From positions 352,001 through 416,000 of the forward strand of contig JBMNFL010000001.1 in assembly GCA_050949315.1 (NCBI GenBank): a stretch of DNA of 64,000 nt, given 5' to 3'. The stretch comes from Bacilli bacterium (GTDB lineage: Bacteria > Bacillota_I > Bacilli_A > RFN20 > UBA1709). Position 1 is the stretch's first letter, and each line of letters starts with the position of its first letter. The notes beneath the pieces are model-generated. The model searched no databases. It had not been told where the DNA came from and saw only the letters and a program-made list of their open reading frames with translations. Below, one piece after another: positions 3,518 to 12,929 of this stretch. The translations under genes were made by a program, and so were the position numbers.

Positions 3518-5131
3518 CTAAAGTTCCAGGTCACTAAATAGACAGCGTAAATTCAAGTTAAAGAGATAGGCTCTGATTAATAAGAAGACAAAGCTTAGAA
3601 TTGACATAACTATAAAAGCCTTGGTATCGGGATAGATAAAGTAAACTACGGCCGAGATAAGGCCAATGATAAAGGCCAGTAAAAAGCCATAGAGAATGCT
3701 GCGACCAACATTTTTATTGTCGCTAACCTCCCCAACCATCGCATACTCATGCATCAAAGGATTCTTAATATCTAATTGCATTGACCACAGAATATGAGCG
3801 ATATTACAAATGAAGCAGATTACAAACATCTGTAGCAAAGTAATAGGGGCAATAACACCAAATAAACCGACAACCCCTAAGGAAAGAGCAATAAAGATGG
3901 TGCTTATTACCACGTTAGTCGTTAACTTGGCCCAGCAGATTAAATGGGTTTTAGCTGGTGATGTTTTCAGTAAAACAAACTCGCCACCCTCTTTACTCAA
4001 AGCCGTCGCGGCTGATTGATTGGAAGCCGTGATAAATAAAAGACTTAAAACCATGTTCATCCCAATCACAATAATTCGTCCATAACCATTTAAAATCAAA
4101 GCGCCTACAATACCATTTACTAGATACAAGAAGAATGGTAACAAAGCGATAAGGGTATATTCAGAAATCAATTGTCCAAATTTTCTAAAGGACAGCGTAA
4201 ATTCCTTCTGTAAAAAGGCTCTATAAGTACGTCTAGCCTTAAGACTCCGTCTTTTGTGCACCTTTATTCTAGCCCGCTCGCCACTCTGACAAGCCAAACT
4301 AAAGAATAAAGGTTTAGATAATACTAAATTAAGAATTAATAGAACAACGATTACCGCTAAAAGGTAAAGTATAGATACTAAAGTTTTTTGGCCAAAGGCA
4401 AAATCAGCCGCCCAAACATAGAAAAGTGAATTGTTGGCAATTAGACCAGCTGACTTATCAATGGCAATTAAAACTGCGTTGTACATAGCCTTTAAGCGCA
4501 AGGGATCTGGTAAGCTTTGAAGCAAAGAATAAATACCAAATAAGACCCCCACAAAAAGAACAAATACTGTAATTACATAAAGAGCCGTTATCTTTTTAAA
4601 AGCTCTGGTAACAAACATAATTGGAATGCTTATTAGCGAACTTAAAAGCAAGGCAATTAAAGGCAGAATAAAAGTCAAAATTGCTGAGGCCACAAAAAAC
4701 CAAATATTTAGGCCACAGAGAATCCCAAAGCCCAGCATTAAAGGCAGCGTTATGTAAAGGCTTTTTATAAACTCATTGATATAGGCCACGATGAGTTTGC
4801 TATAGAAAACCTCACTACCCTCAGCCGGCATTGATAAAAGAATAGGATTGTCCTTGCTGCCATAAAGTGAAGTAATCATAGAGGACATCAAGGCAATGAT
4901 ATTTAAGAATTGAATCAACACCACCAAAAAGAAGAGGAAGTTTCTAGTTAGAGGAATGTAAAAGAAGGATTTAAAGACCAGAAGAAGGCCAATAAAAACT
5001 CCGGTCATGGCCAAAAGTCCAACAAAGCTCAACACAACTGTTAGACTAACGGCTACTATTCCTTTTTTGGCAAGCTTGAAACGATTACCTAATTGTAAAA
5101 GTACAAGGTTGCGAATTCGATAAAAACCCAT
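3518..5131 (-). CDS. Putative ABC exporter permease (about 12-14 TM)
   Basis: Highly hydrophobic; LLSMP and FLQKEF motifs; lies directly after an ABC ATPase; similar to the 28221-29933 permease. Confidence 0.8.
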   Translation of the reverse strand: MGFYRIRNLVLLQLGNRFKLAKKGIVAVSLTVVLSFVGLLAMTGVFIGLLLVFKSFFYIPLTRNFLFFLVVLIQFLNIIALMSSMITSLYGSKDNPILLSMPAEGSEVFYSKLIVAYINEFIKSLYITLPLMLGFGILCGLNIWFFVASAILTFILPLIALLLSSLISIPIMFVTRAFKKITALYVITVFVLFVGVLFGIYSLLQSLPDPLRLKAMYNAVLIAIDKSAGLIANNSLFYVWAADFAFGQKTLVSILYLLAVIVVLLILNLVLSKPLFFSLACQSGERARIKVHKRRSLKARRTYRAFLQKEFTLSFRKFGQLISEYTLIALLPFFLYLVNGIVGALILNGYGRIIVIGMNMVLSLLFITASNQSAATALSKEGGEFVLLKTSPAKTHLICWAKLTTNVVISTIFIALSLGVVGLFGVIAPITLLQMFVICFICNIAHILWSMQLDIKNPLMHEYAMVGEVSDNKNVGRSILYGFLLAFIIGLISAVVYFIYPDTKAFIVMSILSFVFLLIRAYLFNLNLRCLFSDLEL

Positions 5132-5134
5132 GCT

Positions 5135-7666
5135 TTAACTTCCTTTTTTAACACGTTTTTTGGGGGCTTTTTTAGGACCCGATCTTGCTGAATAGCGTTT
5201 TTTCTTAACTTTCACTTCTTCAGTTATAACTTCTGTTTCCTGAACAGGCTCTTGTTCTTCTTCAACTACTGGTTCTGAAACAGTTTCCTTTTCTTCTTCA
5301 ACCACTGGTTCTGAAACAGTTTCCTTTTCTTCTTCAACCACTGGTTCTGAAACAGCTTCTTTTTCTTCTACAAGCGGAACTGGTTTAGAAATTTCTTCTT
5401 CGGAAACTGTGGTTTCAGTTTGAATCTCATCTTCTATACGCTTACCATCAACATCCGTGACAAGATTTTGGGTCGCGACATATTTCATATAGAGTTGTTC
5501 CAAACTCATTCCTTCTTCTCCAAGTTTTTTAATCTCCCATTCACCAATCAGCTTTCCATGACCGATGATACAGATCTTATCACAAATCTTTTCTACCACT
5601 TCAATGACGTGGCTACTGAAGAAAACGATGTTGCCACGATTGGCATGGTCACGCATACATTCCTTAATTTGGAAAGAACTAGTTGGATCTAGACCTGTTA
5701 AAGGCTCATCTAGGATCCAAACTTTGGGATCGTGCATCAAAGAGGCGATGACGACAATTTTTTGTTTCATTCCATGGGAATAGCCTTTAATCTCGCGATC
5801 AATCGCATCCTGTAAATTAAACATCTTGACATACTTTTCAAATCTTTCTTTCCGTTCTTCTTCGGGGACAAGATAAAGATTGGCGACATAATTGATATAT
5901 TCTCGACCAGTAAGTTTTTCATACACCGCGTGATTGTCCGAGACATAACCAATATTGAGTTTGGCGGCCACAGGTTGTTTTTCAATATCAAAACCACAGA
6001 CAGAAATTGTTCCCTCCGTAATAGTTTGGATACCGACTATCGACTTTATCGTGGTGGATTTACCCGCACCATTATGTCCAAGGAAGCCATAGACATCCCC
6101 GCCTCTAATGGTAAGTGAGAAATCGTCAACCGATCTTACTTTGGACCCACTATAAATTTTGGTAAAGTTACTAATCCGAATAACATCTTTGTCTTCGGGA
6201 TATAGTGGCTCCGTTTTACTCATTTTATTTTTCATTCTACGTATATTCATCCAACCCAGCCCCTTTTCTTTTTTAATCAAGTGTAAATTGTGATGGTCAT
6301 CTGCTACCCTAAACATACCGAAGTAGAAGAGCCATTCAGCTAAAATAAAGACGGTATAAACAATATAGATACCAATCCAAAAGGTTTTATAAAATCTAAA
6401 GGTGTGCCCATGAATATCAACATAAGTGACATCCTCACGTACATTGGCAAAAAAGCGCCCAACATCTCCAAAAATTCGCTCTGGCACAACATCCTTAGCT
6501 ACATCCACTAACTTGGTTTCATTCATGAAGAAGTAGTTGGCCCCCTCATTCCACCAGTAAGCATTAAGTAAGGTTACTATGGCGTAGTAGCAAGTAAAAG
6601 TTATCATGCACCAGATAATAGCTTTCATGTTTGGCCTAGGGAATAAGCCTATCACCACCGCCACGATAGGTACCGTAAAGATGCTGGCATGCTCAAACCA
6701 GAAGTGCACCCCTAAAGAGGTGAAAAGCGATTTATCAACTGTTGGAGTAAGCATGGCAAAGAAAGCCCCTATCGTATTCACAAAAAATCCAAAGTAGAAT
6801 AAGCGTTTTGATTTAAAGGTAAAGGTGATAACCATCAAAATTACAGCCGCATGACAAAGGTGCAAAGGCATTGTTGATGGAGTAAATGGCCAAGAATAAT
6901 AATAGAAGAACTGCACAAACATGATATAGACAAACATAGTGAGTACATAGTGTTTATCTTTAAATGGTCGATTTCTCAAAGTTATATAAGCCACTATAAT
7001 CGTGGCAAAACAAACCACAAATATGCCGATATGCGTCTTATTGAAATCGCCGACAACTTCGCCAATGTCACCAAATAAATTGCCTAGGGTTCCATAGGGC
7101 ATAATCAGGACACTAAGCACTAATCCATTAATTATCATCAAGAACAGCTGCTTGAAAAACGGTCGCCAGGTGCGACTTAGGAACTTGCGAACTAAATACA
7201 TCGTGCCTAAAGCTAGACCTAAGACACATTCAATAGCAAACTGAATTTCACGTAAGCTGTAGGATGGAATATCAATGTAATCGAGAAAGGCATAAATATT
7301 AATATTGTAATAATAGATATTTAAAAAATAAACAACGGGAACCACAAAGGCTGCAAGGTTTAATAAAGTCCTTCTTTTAAACCAAGGTGCCGTTACTAAA
7401 ACCAGCACACACATCATAGTTACCGCCCTTAAGATGACAAGCACATAATAAACATTCGCAGCAAAGATGCTGTTATTGAAACCAAGTACATCGTCAATCT
7501 TATCTTCTTGGAACAATCTTACGAGATAACAAGCCAAAAAGATCAAGGAAAAAACCTTGGCGGTTACATCAAAGCGCTTACTGGATTTTGTTTTAAAATT
7601 ACCTATTATGTTTAAAAGGATGGCAAGAATTGCTGCTGCAATAAATAGCCATATTCTAACTGTCAC
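5135..7666 (-). CDS. Fusion of YwaF/TMEM164-like integral membrane domain(s), ABC ATPase and an acidic/basic tail
   Basis: PLHLCH and FWFEH motifs in the membrane part; Walker A GHNGAGKST, signature SHGMKQK, Walker B WILDEP and H-loop SSH; GTG start with GAGGT SD 9 nt upstream. Confidence 0.85.
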   Translation of the reverse strand: MTVRIWLFIAAAILAILLNIIGNFKTKSSKRFDVTAKVFSLIFLACYLVRLFQEDKIDDVLGFNNSIFAANVYYVLVILRAVTMMCVLVLVTAPWFKRRTLLNLAAFVVPVVYFLNIYYYNINIYAFLDYIDIPSYSLREIQFAIECVLGLALGTMYLVRKFLSRTWRPFFKQLFLMIINGLVLSVLIMPYGTLGNLFGDIGEVVGDFNKTHIGIFVVCFATIIVAYITLRNRPFKDKHYVLTMFVYIMFVQFFYYYSWPFTPSTMPLHLCHAAVILMVITFTFKSKRLFYFGFFVNTIGAFFAMLTPTVDKSLFTSLGVHFWFEHASIFTVPIVAVVIGLFPRPNMKAIIWCMITFTCYYAIVTLLNAYWWNEGANYFFMNETKLVDVAKDVVPERIFGDVGRFFANVREDVTYVDIHGHTFRFYKTFWIGIYIVYTVFILAEWLFYFGMFRVADDHHNLHLIKKEKGLGWMNIRRMKNKMSKTEPLYPEDKDVIRISNFTKIYSGSKVRSVDDFSLTIRGGDVYGFLGHNGAGKSTTIKSIVGIQTITEGTISVCGFDIEKQPVAAKLNIGYVSDNHAVYEKLTGREYINYVANLYLVPEEERKERFEKYVKMFNLQDAIDREIKGYSHGMKQKIVVIASLMHDPKVWILDEPLTGLDPTSSFQIKECMRDHANRGNIVFFSSHVIEVVEKICDKICIIGHGKLIGEWEIKKLGEEGMSLEQLYMKYVATQNLVTDVDGKRIEDEIQTETTVSEEEISKPVPLVEEKEAVSEPVVEEEKETVSEPVVEEEKETVSEPVVEEEQEPVQETEVITEEVKVKKKRYSARSGPKKAPKKRVKKGS
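5255..5362. repeat. 3 x 36-bp coding tandem repeat (EEEKETVSEPVV)
   Basis: Unit ttcttcttcaaccactggttctgaaacagtttcctt at 5255, 5291 and 5327 with 0-2 mismatches. Confidence 0.95.
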
Positions 7667-7674
7667 TATTATTC

Positions 7675-7745
7675 AACCTCACAATCAAAAGGCGCAATAC
7701 GCCCAAAAATGATAGCGTACCTTCACACTATCTGATTATGAGATT
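7675..7745 (-). promoter_or_regulatory. Predicted three-way RNA junction sequestering the SD of the ABC fusion gene
   Basis: On the mRNA, AAUCUCAUAAUCA pairs with UGAUUGUGAGGUU (13 bp including 2 G-U) and encloses the hairpins GAUAGUGU/ACGCUAUC and GGGCG/CGCCU. Confidence 0.7.
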
Positions 7746-7746
7746 C

Positions 7747-8214
7747 TCAGCACAAAAATGTAACGTTAACTATATAGCGTAATGTGTTTTTTCTATTGAT
7801 TAATTTTAAATGATAATAATTTTTAGAAGTGGCTTTTTCTGGTTTATCCTCGCTGTTCGCAACAAGCACTTTCTCGCAGAATATAGTTGAAATCAAAACT
7901 GAAAAGACTAGGGGGAGAATAGTTGTCCCTCTTAGTCCAGCAAAAGAAATTTGTTTTAAGAAGCCGCTGAGACCCTTACTAACGAATAATTCATCGAAAT
8001 TTGCGCTACTTGTTAGGGTTCGGAAGTTGGCAACCAAAAAAGGTAAATCCATGGCCATACAAGTTAAAAGCAAGATACAAATTGAAGAGAAAACGCCAAC
8101 GAGAACAGCAATTATTTTATTTTTAAGACAGCGTCTTAACAATGCGAAAAGGCGCCTTAGTCCAACTATGGTAATAACAATTATTAACGCAATAAACAAC
8201 AAATGGACTAGCAT
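7747..8214 (-). CDS. Small membrane protein (3 hydrophobic segments plus 42-aa tail); candidate regulatory leader/arrest peptide
   Basis: RBS AGGAGGA upstream; a candidate promoter TTGTCT-16-(TG)TAAAAT lies at 8274-8247; first gene of the leftward operon. Confidence 0.7.
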   Translation of the reverse strand: MLVHLLFIALIIVITIVGLRRLFALLRRCLKNKIIAVLVGVFSSICILLLTCMAMDLPFLVANFRTLTSSANFDELFVSKGLSGFLKQISFAGLRGTTILPLVFSVLISTIFCEKVLVANSEDKPEKATSKNYYHLKLINRKNTLRYIVNVTFLC

Positions 8215-8391
8215 TCGCTTTTTTCCTCCTCAATCTGCTTTATGACATTTTAACATATATTTTTAAAAAGACAATATCTAAAGATATTATATTTGTATGC
8301 CAATCAAAATTTCTACCAAAATCCCGCCACAATTAAGAAAAGTTTTTTTATGACTTTTTATCCTTTGTTCCTAAAAAACAAGCCGAATACC

Positions 8392-8420
8392 TTGACAAAA
8401 AGGAAGAAAAGTTTTATAAA
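8392..8420 (+). promoter_or_regulatory. Sigma70-type promoter of trkAH
   Basis: TTGACA-17 nt-TATAAA. Confidence 0.6.
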
Positions 8421-8466
8421 TGCAGTATATCTATCAGAAATAGATATACATAACCGAGGTGGACTT

Positions 8467-9822
8467 ATGAATATTATAGTAGTTGGAGATGGCAAAGTCG
8501 GCCGAGCTATAGTCAGTCATATCAGCAAAGAAAATCACAATATTGTTGTCATTGATAAAAACCCCGATAACATTCAAACGGTAGTTAACCAGTTTGATGT
8601 TTTAGGTGTTGTCGGTAATGGTGTTAGCTACGATATTTTAAAAGAGGCCTCTGTCCATACTGCCGACTTATTTATTGCGGCTACCTCTAGTGATGAAATC
8701 AATCTTTTAGCCTGCGCCATCGCTAAGACGCTTGGTGCCAGCGATACCATAGCCCGTGTTCGTGATCCTGAATATTTAAACCAAGTCGCTTTCATGCGTA
8801 GAGAACTCGGCGTAACAATGACTATTAATCCTGAGTATTCAACGGCTCATGAAATTCTCAATATGATCCAAATCCCCGCCGCCTTAAAGATAGAAACTTT
8901 TGCTAATGGGCGCGCTGAAATGATGGAGATCTATGTTGAAGATAAAAGTCCATTGGCGGGAATAAATTTAATTCAGTTGCGACAAAAATATCCTCTACCC
9001 TTCCTAGTCTGCGCGGTTCAACGCGGGGAAGAGGTTTTTATTCCAGGTGGCGATTTTGTTATTCAAGCAAATGATAAAATTCATATCTCTTCTTCTCGCA
9101 AGAATCTCACTCAACTCTTTAAGGAACTAGGCATTTTTAAGCGCCGACTTAATAATATTATGATTATTGGTGGGGGCAAAATTGGCTACTATCTCTGTGA
9201 ACTTTTATTACAGAATAACTACAATGTCAAGATCATTGAAAAAGACCAAAAGCGCTGTGAGGAATTAAGCGACTTTTTCCCAAGAGCAGTTATCATTCAT
9301 GCTGATGGCACTGACCAAGATGTGCTCAACCAAGAAGGTCTTAAAGAAGCCGATGCCATTGTAGCCCTTGCTAACATTGATGAGGAAAACATTGTCGTTT
9401 CCATGTATGCTCAGAAACAAGGTGTTAAAAAGGTTATCGCCAAAGTCAATCATTCTGGCTTACTGCAAATTATTGAAAGCGTTGATGTCGCCAGCACCAT
9501 TTCCCCTAAAGATGTGGTAGCCGATGAAATCCTCAGTTATGTTCGCGCCAAAAGTAATATTCATGGCAATAATGTTAAAACTCTTTATAAATTAGTTAAC
9601 GGTCAAGTCGAGGCCATAGAGTTCGAAGTTTGTGAAATGCCCCAAAAACTTGATTTGCCCTTAAAAGATTTAACTCTTAAAGACAACATCTTAATCGCCG
9701 CCATTATCCGTAATAATGAGGTCATTATTCCTGGTGGCAATGATCAAATAAAATTAGATGATCGCGTAGTCGTGGTTAGCAGTCAGTATTATTTTGACGA
9801 TTTAAGCGAAATTGTTAAATAG
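8467..9822 (+). CDS. trkA: Trk K+ uptake NAD-binding subunit
   Basis: Two Rossmann motifs (IIVVGDGKVG, IIGGGKIG) and RCK_C domains; start reassigned to ATG 8467 after GAGGTGG. Confidence 0.95.
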   Translation: MNIIVVGDGKVGRAIVSHISKENHNIVVIDKNPDNIQTVVNQFDVLGVVGNGVSYDILKEASVHTADLFIAATSSDEINLLACAIAKTLGASDTIARVRDPEYLNQVAFMRRELGVTMTINPEYSTAHEILNMIQIPAALKIETFANGRAEMMEIYVEDKSPLAGINLIQLRQKYPLPFLVCAVQRGEEVFIPGGDFVIQANDKIHISSSRKNLTQLFKELGIFKRRLNNIMIIGGGKIGYYLCELLLQNNYNVKIIEKDQKRCEELSDFFPRAVIIHADGTDQDVLNQEGLKEADAIVALANIDEENIVVSMYAQKQGVKKVIAKVNHSGLLQIIESVDVASTISPKDVVADEILSYVRAKSNIHGNNVKTLYKLVNGQVEAIEFEVCEMPQKLDLPLKDLTLKDNILIAAIIRNNEVIIPGGNDQIKLDDRVVVVSSQYYFDDLSEIVK

Positions 9823-11479: not shown

Positions 11480-12343
11480 TCATTGAGCTTTTAATTCCTT
11501 TAAAGTAGAAATAAATAGTTCAGCCTTCCAAAGATTTAAACTGTCCTTATCACTGATAAAACTAGCGACATCTTTTTTGGCGGCTTCATAATCAATCTCA
11601 GCAAACTTTTCTTTTAAAAGTTCTCTTACCATCTCTAATGTAAGAGTGGCATCACTATCAATTTTGCCAGTATCTTTTAATTTATTTTCTAAGTATCTGA
11701 GATTAAATTTGCTGCCCTTACTGACATAGAAAAGATAGTCATAATAATCTCGACCCTTTACCTGCTTCTTATAACTACGACAGAGAAGGGCATGAATCTT
11801 GCCTGCAAATAAACTTGCTTCATCAAAAATTTGAATCTCATAAGGTGCTGGCAACATTCTAAAAGCAATTTCTGTTGTTCCACCACTAGGATTATCAACA
11901 TCTACTTCAAATTTGATTTTTATCTTTTGATTGGCTATCACTTTTTTAGCATCTTCGCTTCTAGGGAAGAAGGACATCATAAGCACAGCTGTATTTCCTT
12001 TTAAAAAAGCCCGCTGAACCTTTTTTACCCGACTGTCTTTGGATTCGACATTAATCTCAATACCATAGGAAAGAAACTCTTTTTCAAGAGCCGGTAAATA
12101 AGCCGCCAGTTTAAAGGTTTCATCCTTTTCTAACAAGGCAAAATCTAAATCTTCACTAAACCGGTTTAATTGGTGAAATATTCTTAAACAACTGCCACCA
12201 TAAAAGGCGGCCTTCTTAAAAAAGCCTCCTCTAGATAAGCCCGCCAAGGCAATTTCTTGAATTATCTCCTTAATGGCATTTTCTCTTTCTTGGTTGTTTT
12301 GAGGCCTATATTTATTCAACATTATGGCGATGGCATTATTCAT
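11480..12343 (-). CDS. abiEii: Type IV TA toxin, AbiEii/AbiGii-family nucleotidyltransferase
   Basis: FYGGSCLR, RFSEDLDF, KIHALL and GRDYYD motifs. Confidence 0.9.
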   Translation of the reverse strand: MNNAIAIMLNKYRPQNNQERENAIKEIIQEIALAGLSRGGFFKKAAFYGGSCLRIFHQLNRFSEDLDFALLEKDETFKLAAYLPALEKEFLSYGIEINVESKDSRVKKVQRAFLKGNTAVLMMSFFPRSEDAKKVIANQKIKIKFEVDVDNPSGGTTEIAFRMLPAPYEIQIFDEASLFAGKIHALLCRSYKKQVKGRDYYDYLFYVSKGSKFNLRYLENKLKDTGKIDSDATLTLEMVRELLKEKFAEIDYEAAKKDVASFISDKDSLNLWKAELFISTLKELKAQ

Positions 12344-12929
12344 AGTTATATTCCTTTCTAATTAACTTTATTAAAAGATTTAAATTAGTTCTTTTGTATA
12401 GTTTGGCCAGTCTTATCATTAACTTAAAATCACAAGATGAAAATTCATCTTGATCAATTCTTTTATCAATAAATAACAGTTCCTTTAATTCCTTAATACT
12501 GCCCACCACTCTCCACTTGTAAAGAGAATCACAAATAGCCTTTTCTTTCGTGGCCATCTTTACTAGATAATCGCCCTCTTTTAAATAAGTTAAGCCTTCA
12601 GAAAAAGCGGCAGCTGGAATATCGCTGTATTCATATCGGCCTAACTTATTTTCAAAACATTTATTCTTTCTTAAACCTAAAGAGGCCGAGGTAATGGCGA
12701 AAACTTTCTCGGGAATCAAACCATAATACGACAAGGCATAATCAAAACTTAGATATGATGGTGATAAGATAGAAGAGGCTAGTAAGCAGGGATTAATACT
12801 ACTATCCCTAACATAAAGGCTTCTATTTAAGCGAATGAGAGCACCACTAGCAGCATCACGCTTAATTTTATCTAAGGGATTAGCATAATCGGCATATTCT
12901 TTCTTTAACATCGAAGTTGTAACTAGCAT
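12336..12929 (-). CDS. abiEi: Type IV TA antitoxin, AbiEi-family transcriptional regulator
   Basis: LIRLNRSLY, PSYLSFDYALSYYGLIPE and ATKEKAICD motifs; overlaps the toxin start. Confidence 0.85.
   Translation of the reverse strand: MLVTTSMLKKEYADYANPLDKIKRDAASGALIRLNRSLYVRDSSINPCLLASSILSPSYLSFDYALSYYGLIPEKVFAITSASLGLRKNKCFENKLGRYEYSDIPAAAFSEGLTYLKEGDYLVKMATKEKAICDSLYKWRVVGSIKELKELLFIDKRIDQDEFSSCDFKLMIRLAKLYKRTNLNLLIKLIRKEYNYE

Follow-up and report, generated by a model that had tools for sequence, protein, structure and literature searches.

The stretch of DNA analysed here, which we call the window, comprises 64,000 nt (positions 352,001 to 416,000) of contig JBMNFL010000001.1 from assembly GCA_050949315.1, the single-contig, 1.01-Mb genome (37.7% G+C) of a member of the Bacilli. 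Our subject within it is the junction between a small open reading frame (ORF) of 155 codons and the downstream gene of an ATP-binding cassette (ABC) fusion protein, where a stable RNA fold masks the ribosome-binding site (RBS) of the latter. All genes concerned lie on the minus strand, in the order 155-aa ORF, gap (80-83 nt), 843-aa fusion gene, 537-aa gene and 158-aa gene. The 155-aa ORF (8214-7747, with its TGA at 7749-7747) encodes a protein with three hydrophobic segments, the first spanning residues 2-19, followed by a tail of 42 aa, and its last 12 codons (7750-7785) carry a conserved C-terminal motif that was delineated by an end-anchored comparison. TGA is used as a stop codon in this genome; an alternative genetic code was ruled out, since 103 of the 801 ORFs that reach 150 aa end in TGA and translation table 11 leaves the long ORFs intact.

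The fusion gene (5135-7666) lies in a different frame from the 155-aa ORF and begins with a GTG codon (7666-7664). Its 843-aa product is an unusual fusion, consisting of an N-terminal polytopic membrane part, which matches the Pfam family TMEM164 (1.2e-23, residues 211-385), then an ABC ATPase domain (ABC_tran, 3.8e-26, residues 514-656) and an acidic C-terminal repeat, of which there are three. NCBIfam recognises this protein with ABC ATPase models only, and the N-termini of its orthologues align from residue 1. The next gene (3518-5131) encodes a polytopic membrane protein of 537 aa, the putative permease partner, which is syntenic in a related metagenomic locus, L045, described below; its match to Pfam ABC_tran_2 is weak and below the cut-off (E 0.028).

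The initial annotation of this region had proposed that the RNA of the gap folds into a 13-bp closing stem enclosing two inner hairpins, and RNAfold returns the identical architecture. The 5' arm of the closing stem (7745-7733) begins 1 nt past the TGA and pairs with the 3' arm (7687-7675), which holds the Shine-Dalgarno (SD) sequence GAGGU of the fusion gene (7680-7676), located 9 nt before the GTG; these positions hold on the minus strand. The 5' arm contains the sequence complementary to the SD (anti-SD), 2-8 nt past the stop codon, together with a hexamer, CATAAT (7740-7735). Enclosed by the stem are an inner hairpin of 9 pairs (7732-7711), followed by AUUUUU, and a second of 6 pairs, four of them G-C (7704-7690), followed by UUUU and weakly terminator-like. 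When a context of 121 nt is folded, an additional outer helix joins the GTG region to codons of the small ORF at about positions 148-151.

This fold is real, is unusually stable and masks the RBS of a gene for a membrane ABC transporter. Its energy in the 121-nt context is -37.7 kcal/mol (z -4.89), a stability equalled by none of 200 dinucleotide shuffles. The gap alone reaches -31.9 kcal/mol (z -4.66), which ranks sixth by z among the genome's 185 gaps of 40-160 nt between genes of the same strand. Opening the RBS (positions -17 to +3) costs 13.3 kcal/mol, against a genome median of 6.0, and places this gene 34th of 915. Finally, the duplex between the stop codon plus 14 nt and the RBS has an energy of -15.5 kcal/mol, the first rank among the 185 gaps and a value reached by only 0.07% of 3000 mismatched controls. 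The genome-wide ranks are approximate, as they rest on heuristic gene calls (915 genes), some starts of which are surely wrong. Rfam yielded seven matches in 7400-8500, all far below gathering scores (E 0.64-9) and none on the minus strand over 7667-7746. A repeat or mobile element as the origin of the gap sequence was also ruled out: it is unique in the 1.01-Mb genome, the second-best blastn-short match being 14 nt long.

The 155-aa protein has no match in Pfam or NCBIfam, and its family is sparsely represented. A profile search of 1.84 billion representatives returned three proteins, all of 155 aa: that of the window, one from genome G007, and a further protein, P0003. A word-index search with the small protein found only its own 99% cluster. 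Of 61 related genomes, three passed, of which one is real beyond the genome of the window itself, while the match in genome G037 contains stops; among 12 genomes of the same family four passed, two of them full length; and among 401 genomes of the same order five passed, full-length copies without stops being confined to the genome of the window (G000) and G007. A metagenome scan with the family alignment (A1) found no further member, and a scan of genome contigs with P0003 gave no match. The metagenome scan with P0003 revealed one locus, L045, the 155-aa protein of which is 62% identical to P0003. L045 shows full synteny, with trkH and trkA on the other strand followed by the small ORF, a gap of 83 nt, a fusion gene that starts with GTG and the gene of the permease. 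The G007 locus (L002, here G007a) has the same arrangement, with a 110-nt gap, an ATG start and a strong GAGGAG SD. G007 also carries a paralogous locus (L039, here G007b), where the upstream membrane ORF of 162-178 aa shows, taken as a whole, no homology to the family members (hhalign probability 0.15%) and was kept in the comparisons for its C-terminal match only. Other small upstream ORFs were tried as family members and not counted (hhalign probability 11% for L016 and 0.6% for L009).

The four clear members are each exactly 155 aa long, with a tail of 41-42 aa, even though their identity to the window protein is only 24-28%; this constancy suggests a functional protein. The final hydrophobic segment of the window protein ends near residue 113 of 155, in agreement with the 42-aa tail that had been proposed. 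The best-conserved windows of the protein are the first transmembrane segment (TM1) and the outer loop between TM2 and TM3 (residues 68-80). As their conservation equals or exceeds that of the C-terminus, the sequence comparison suggests that the small protein is a working membrane protein and not a disposable leader. The AlphaFold2 model, built on a five-row alignment, has a mean pLDDT of 51.9, with the tail below 50 and helices of low confidence, and was not used; the best ESM Atlas hits (feature score 0.83, TM scores of 0.46 or below) were all within noise; and a complex prediction that paired the small protein with the fusion protein's membrane part returned no answer (score 0.00), which weighs neither way.

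The very C-terminus of the small protein carries the motif [YF]-[IL]-[IV]-[NQ]-x-x-[FIL]-[LS]-x-end, which was found in all loci compared; in the window protein its motif residues are 147-154. Conservation of the leader C-terminus had been named in the initial annotation as a check, and it was assessed by aligning the 12 terminal residues without gaps from the C-terminal end and scoring them with BLOSUM against the 914 other C-termini of the same genome. The result was positive: all ten family pairs fall within the top 0-3% of the background tails, and the pairs formed by G007b with the window and with G007a were each equalled by 0 of 914. The motif is encoded by different codons between loci, which indicates that selection acts on the peptide. 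The last residue itself varies (C, N, R, R, C), and among 146 windows the conservation of the last ten residues ranks 10th with five sequences and 19th with the clear orthologues, behind TM1 and the loop at residues 68-80.

The fusion gene itself is widespread in the order. Among 14 homologous loci that were informative, one has a homologue of the small ORF, two have unrelated small membrane ORFs and 11 have neither; a fifteenth, L010, was left out since it offers too little upstream DNA. A leader of this kind is therefore not a general requirement of the fusion gene. Full-length homologues of it occur in at least 14 of 60 related genomes, and four paralogues are present in G007, two of which are interrupted by internal stops. 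We also observed a protein of 311-447 aa, of no identified family, encoded directly upstream of the fusion gene in L011, L012, L013 and L020. In G007 its gene lies upstream of the small ORF (L002, 2069-3256). The small ORF resembles an insertion between two conserved neighbours.

Masking of the RBS was compared across the loci. L045 has a similar topology, and RNAalifold over L045 and the window gives a 7-pair anti-SD/SD helix in which four pairs are unchanged and three are changed on one side. Masking there is moderate, with a duplex of -8.6 kcal/mol (top 5%) and an RBS opening cost of 9.9 kcal/mol (about the top 12%). Neither G007 locus shows masking: the opening costs are 6.2 kcal/mol (G007a) and 4.5 kcal/mol (G007b), and the duplexes lie at the 35th and 87th percentiles, respectively. 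Conservation of the stem, another check named in the initial annotation, is only partial across the four loci. A hexamer of the pattern CAT[AT]A[TC] is nevertheless present 6-7 nt past the small-ORF stop in all four loci, compared with 4 of 915 genes of the window's own genome, a contrast to be read with the proviso that the pattern was defined after being seen. It lies at 7735-7740 (minus strand) in the window, at 4476-4481 in L045 and at the equivalent place in L002 and L039. In three of the loci it falls within the anti-SD arm; the SD of G007b differs, and pairing does not explain it there. The hexamer may represent an anti-SD arm or a -10 box, or have another role altogether.

In our judgement the best explanation of this junction, to which we give about an even chance of being right, is ordinary translational coupling of the RNA-unfolding type beside a real small membrane protein. 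In the three-way fold the closing stem pairs the fusion gene's SD with the 13 nt past the upstream stop, a further helix joins the GTG region to codons at about 148-151, and the RBS of the fusion gene would therefore be closed by default on the long transcript. Opening would presumably be confined to the time when a ribosome reads the final codons of the 155-aa ORF or terminates there. A ribosome with a stop codon in its A site covers the bases 2-8 nt past the stop. The anti-SD occupies just these positions, within the footprint of the terminating ribosome, so that the stem has to be opened each time the small ORF is translated. On a shared transcript, such coupling would tie synthesis of the ABC fusion protein, with its weak GTG start, to that of the small membrane protein. 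The conserved C-terminal motif would serve the three-TM protein itself, for example in contacting a partner, and no programmed arrest would be needed.

Several observations bear on this proposal. The RNA-unfolding model of translational coupling is itself established, as set out in a review (PMC12548453). L045, which is orthologous, is counted in favour of coupling because it keeps both the GTG start and the 7-pair anti-SD/SD helix, and the ATG start, strong SD and lack of masking in G007a fit with masking being a tunable device for expression. Contigs from three metatranscriptome runs of three studies bridge the gap (7565-7774, 7577-7760 and 7624-7833), which is compatible with co-transcription of the small ORF and the fusion gene. 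The same contigs give no cover at 8242-8442 and end at 7749-7774 in two runs; being contigs and not reads, they allow no inference on transcript starts, ends or levels. The SD has a pairing probability of 0.76.

A number of points weigh against coupling. The bridging contigs come from RNA libraries that may contain DNA, and are no proof of a single transcript. By mean pairing probability the RBS ranks only 100th of 915 (about the 89th percentile) and the SD alone 128th. None of the folds of L045 (z -1.14), G007a (z -1.46) and G007b (z -0.56) exceeds its shuffles significantly in stability; RNAalifold over the four loci gives 0 consensus pairs, and the anti-SD/SD helix shared by the window and L045 contains no two-sided compensatory change. 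Any partner or function of the small protein is putative. Finally, the same review describes coupling as most efficient at short spacing, and the gap of 80 nt here is long. The coupling of the RNA-unfolding type seen in phage MS2 (coat-lysis), as treated there, resembles the present case in that the neighbours are co-oriented, the downstream start here being a weak GTG; the described cases mostly have short or negative spacing, in contrast to the 80-nt gap and the two extra hairpins in the loop of the window. If coupling is indeed what operates here, the junction would offer a clean natural case of long-range RBS masking, in which an ABC machine is coupled to a small membrane partner over an unusually long distance of 80 nt. 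Such a result would help annotation and the modelling of operon stoichiometry, without being surprising.

The lack of conservation is what an inverted repeat without regulatory role, neutral and specific to the lineage, would lead one to expect: the structure is not shared by the four loci, the other loci do not out-fold shuffled sequence, and the element occurs once in the genome. We consider this quite improbable, since the stability of the fold and its placement relative to the stop codon and the SD (first of 185 gaps) are both extreme and the arrangement is partly retained in L045. The two U-tailed hairpins instead invite a role at the level of the transcript, as a leaky terminator or attenuator that lowers read-through, or as an element of stability or processing, with the overlap of the SD being secondary. 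Both hairpins are flagged as terminator-like, the 1.7-kb region containing four such sites against 1.1 ± 0.9 in shuffles; in L045, too, a U-run follows a hairpin at this position, and most other highly structured gaps of this genome are plain terminators. Those terminators, however, have 9-13 pairs and 6-8 U, compared with the weak hairpins of 6 and 9 pairs with 4-5 U found here, and in L045, G007a and G007b the scan accepts no site at the corresponding position. Furthermore, the gap is bridged in three RNA-library runs, and a terminator does not account for the exact placement of the anti-SD at the stop codon. A transcript-level role is therefore unlikely in our view.

The hexamer raises the question as to whether the ABC operon has an internal promoter of its own. 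In such a case CATAAT would be the -10 box, transcription would begin near 7729 and leave out the 5' arm, and the masked form would exist only on read-through RNA and be of little weight. A promoter-like site (GTTACA, 18 nt, CATAAT) is indeed present at 7764-7735, and the recurrence of the hexamer past the stop in all four loci would agree with it. This site, however, matches the consensus at only 9 of 12 positions, has no TG and has an 18-nt spacer, in a region where 12 promoter-like sites were found and 6.5 are expected. At the corresponding place in L045, G007a and G007b there is none on the gene strand, the RNA-library contigs reach upstream of 7745, and in three loci the hexamer is explained equally well as the anti-SD arm. 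Such an internal promoter appears very unlikely.

The initial annotation had gone further and read the 155-aa ORF as a MifM/SecM-like arrest peptide that senses force. Part of this reading stands, namely an SD locked in a stem that can be opened from the upstream stop, and a conserved C-terminus; for arrest and force sensing themselves we found no specific support and some evidence to the contrary. In that scheme, whether the arrest is force-sensing or otherwise regulated, the motif would stall the ribosome at the stop codon or near it, the stem would be held open and the fusion gene translated, until insertion of TM3, 42 residues back, pulls on the chain and releases the stall. In the work on monitoring substrates (Sakiyama 2021 / Fujiwara 2024; PMC10987492, PMC7897499), the criteria given are a small ORF of unassigned function placed directly before a sec or yidC gene, an N-terminal signal or TM, a conserved C-terminus and a spacer of more than 30 aa. 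Three of these four features are present in the window protein, which has a TM at its N-terminus, ends in a conserved sequence and places 42 aa between its last TM and the stop. The constant length of both tail and protein in four lineages and the preservation of the motif with different codons speak in the same direction, as does the finding that the motif is the only detectable similarity to the upstream ORF of G007b, which no background tail matches as well. In addition, the stem starts 1 nt past the stop, so that only a ribosome at the very end of the ORF opens it. Precedents exist: CutF controls a gene outside Sec/YidC (bioRxiv 10.1101/2025.02.05.636593) and arrest at the termination stage occurs in CliM of Clostridioides difficile (PMC13183943).

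Against this, the strongest point is the persistence of the motif in G007a and G007b, neither of which has a stem to melt. As the downstream gene is neither sec nor yidC, the rationale for feedback is missing. TMEM164 is described as a membrane-bound lipid acyltransferase of a wider superfamily (PMC12345273), which points to envelope lipids and not to protein insertion. Unlike known monitoring substrates, the small protein has three TMs, and its C-terminus is no better conserved than TM1 and the loop. Inspection of the tail revealed no RAPP-like, KYxIW, NSP/NAP/DGMK-stop or LPPP motif and no proline in the last 30 residues, and the last residue is not constant. Moreover, 11 of the 14 informative fusion-gene loci are without a small upstream membrane ORF, the prior for such a peptide is very low, and a terminating ribosome without programmed arrest explains the anatomy equally well. 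We thus regard an arrest peptide as highly improbable. The broader proposal, that the 155-aa family is a new class of termination-stage, insertion-sensitive arrest peptide with its motif fixed 41-42 residues past the last TM and gating a lipid-acyltransferase-like/ABC fusion, is in our estimation just as remote.

Comparison with the characterised systems shows both the likeness and its limits. With MifM-yidC2 and SecM-secA (PMC10987492, PMC7897499, PMC13183943), the window shares a small membrane-targeted upstream ORF, an SD-sequestering stem, a conserved C-terminus and a spacer of more than 30 aa. It differs from them in its downstream gene, a TMEM164-like/ABC fusion, in the three TMs, the other conserved parts and the lack of a known arrest motif, and in that the stem is absent from two of the three related loci. 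CliM (PMC13183943) comes, as here, from an organism of the Firmicute type, and Tyr147 and Asn150 of the window protein are located 8 and 5 positions from the end. The Lys and Trp that are given as critical in CliM, in contrast, have no counterpart in the window protein, and CliM has a single TM and is found upstream of yidC2. In CutF-cutO of Rhodobacter capsulatus (bioRxiv 10.1101/2025.02.05.636593), a stalling upstream ORF melts a stem that shields the RBS of a target outside Sec/YidC, whereas the tail of the window protein has no proline motif. Given CutF, an arrest peptide in such a context would not be categorically new. If the arrest reading were nonetheless true, the small protein would be among the very few monitoring-type arrest peptides outside Sec/YidC, with a proline-free motif, and nascent-chain force sensing would be extended to envelope or lipid transport.

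The remaining features of the locus can be described briefly. Upstream of the 155-aa ORF is an AGGAGG SD (8225-8230, minus strand), 10 nt 5' of its ATG, and before it a promoter-like site (8247-8274, minus strand) composed of TTGTCT, 16 nt and TG-TAAAAT, which is a consensus match only (9 of 12 positions, with TG). The 158-aa gene at the downstream end (3508-3032) encodes a protein with an N-terminal hydrophobic anchor and no family match in Pfam or NCBIfam. It had been taken for a lipoprotein; inspection of its first 38 residues shows no cysteine and hence no lipobox, and the product is not a lipoprotein because no cysteine precedes residue 39.

Two further observations concern the rest of the genome. 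An rve-type (DDE) transposase gene of 1026 nt with helix-turn-helix (HTH) domains is present in at least seven copies in the window's own genome (G000:C1), at about 63024, 200716, 244467, 256575, 581948, 657861 and 1003687, all outside the window, and also in L046 (169-1191). In the copies inspected, a near-identical leader hairpin sequesters both the SD and the start codon, and these RBSs are among the most strongly masked of the genome. Within the window itself, at 11480-12929 on the minus strand, a nucleotidyltransferase toxin of the AbiEii family (287 aa, Pfam 3.1e-26) overlaps by 8 nt with an upstream ORF of 197 aa that has no Pfam match, and the two probably form a type IV toxin-antitoxin or abortive-infection pair.

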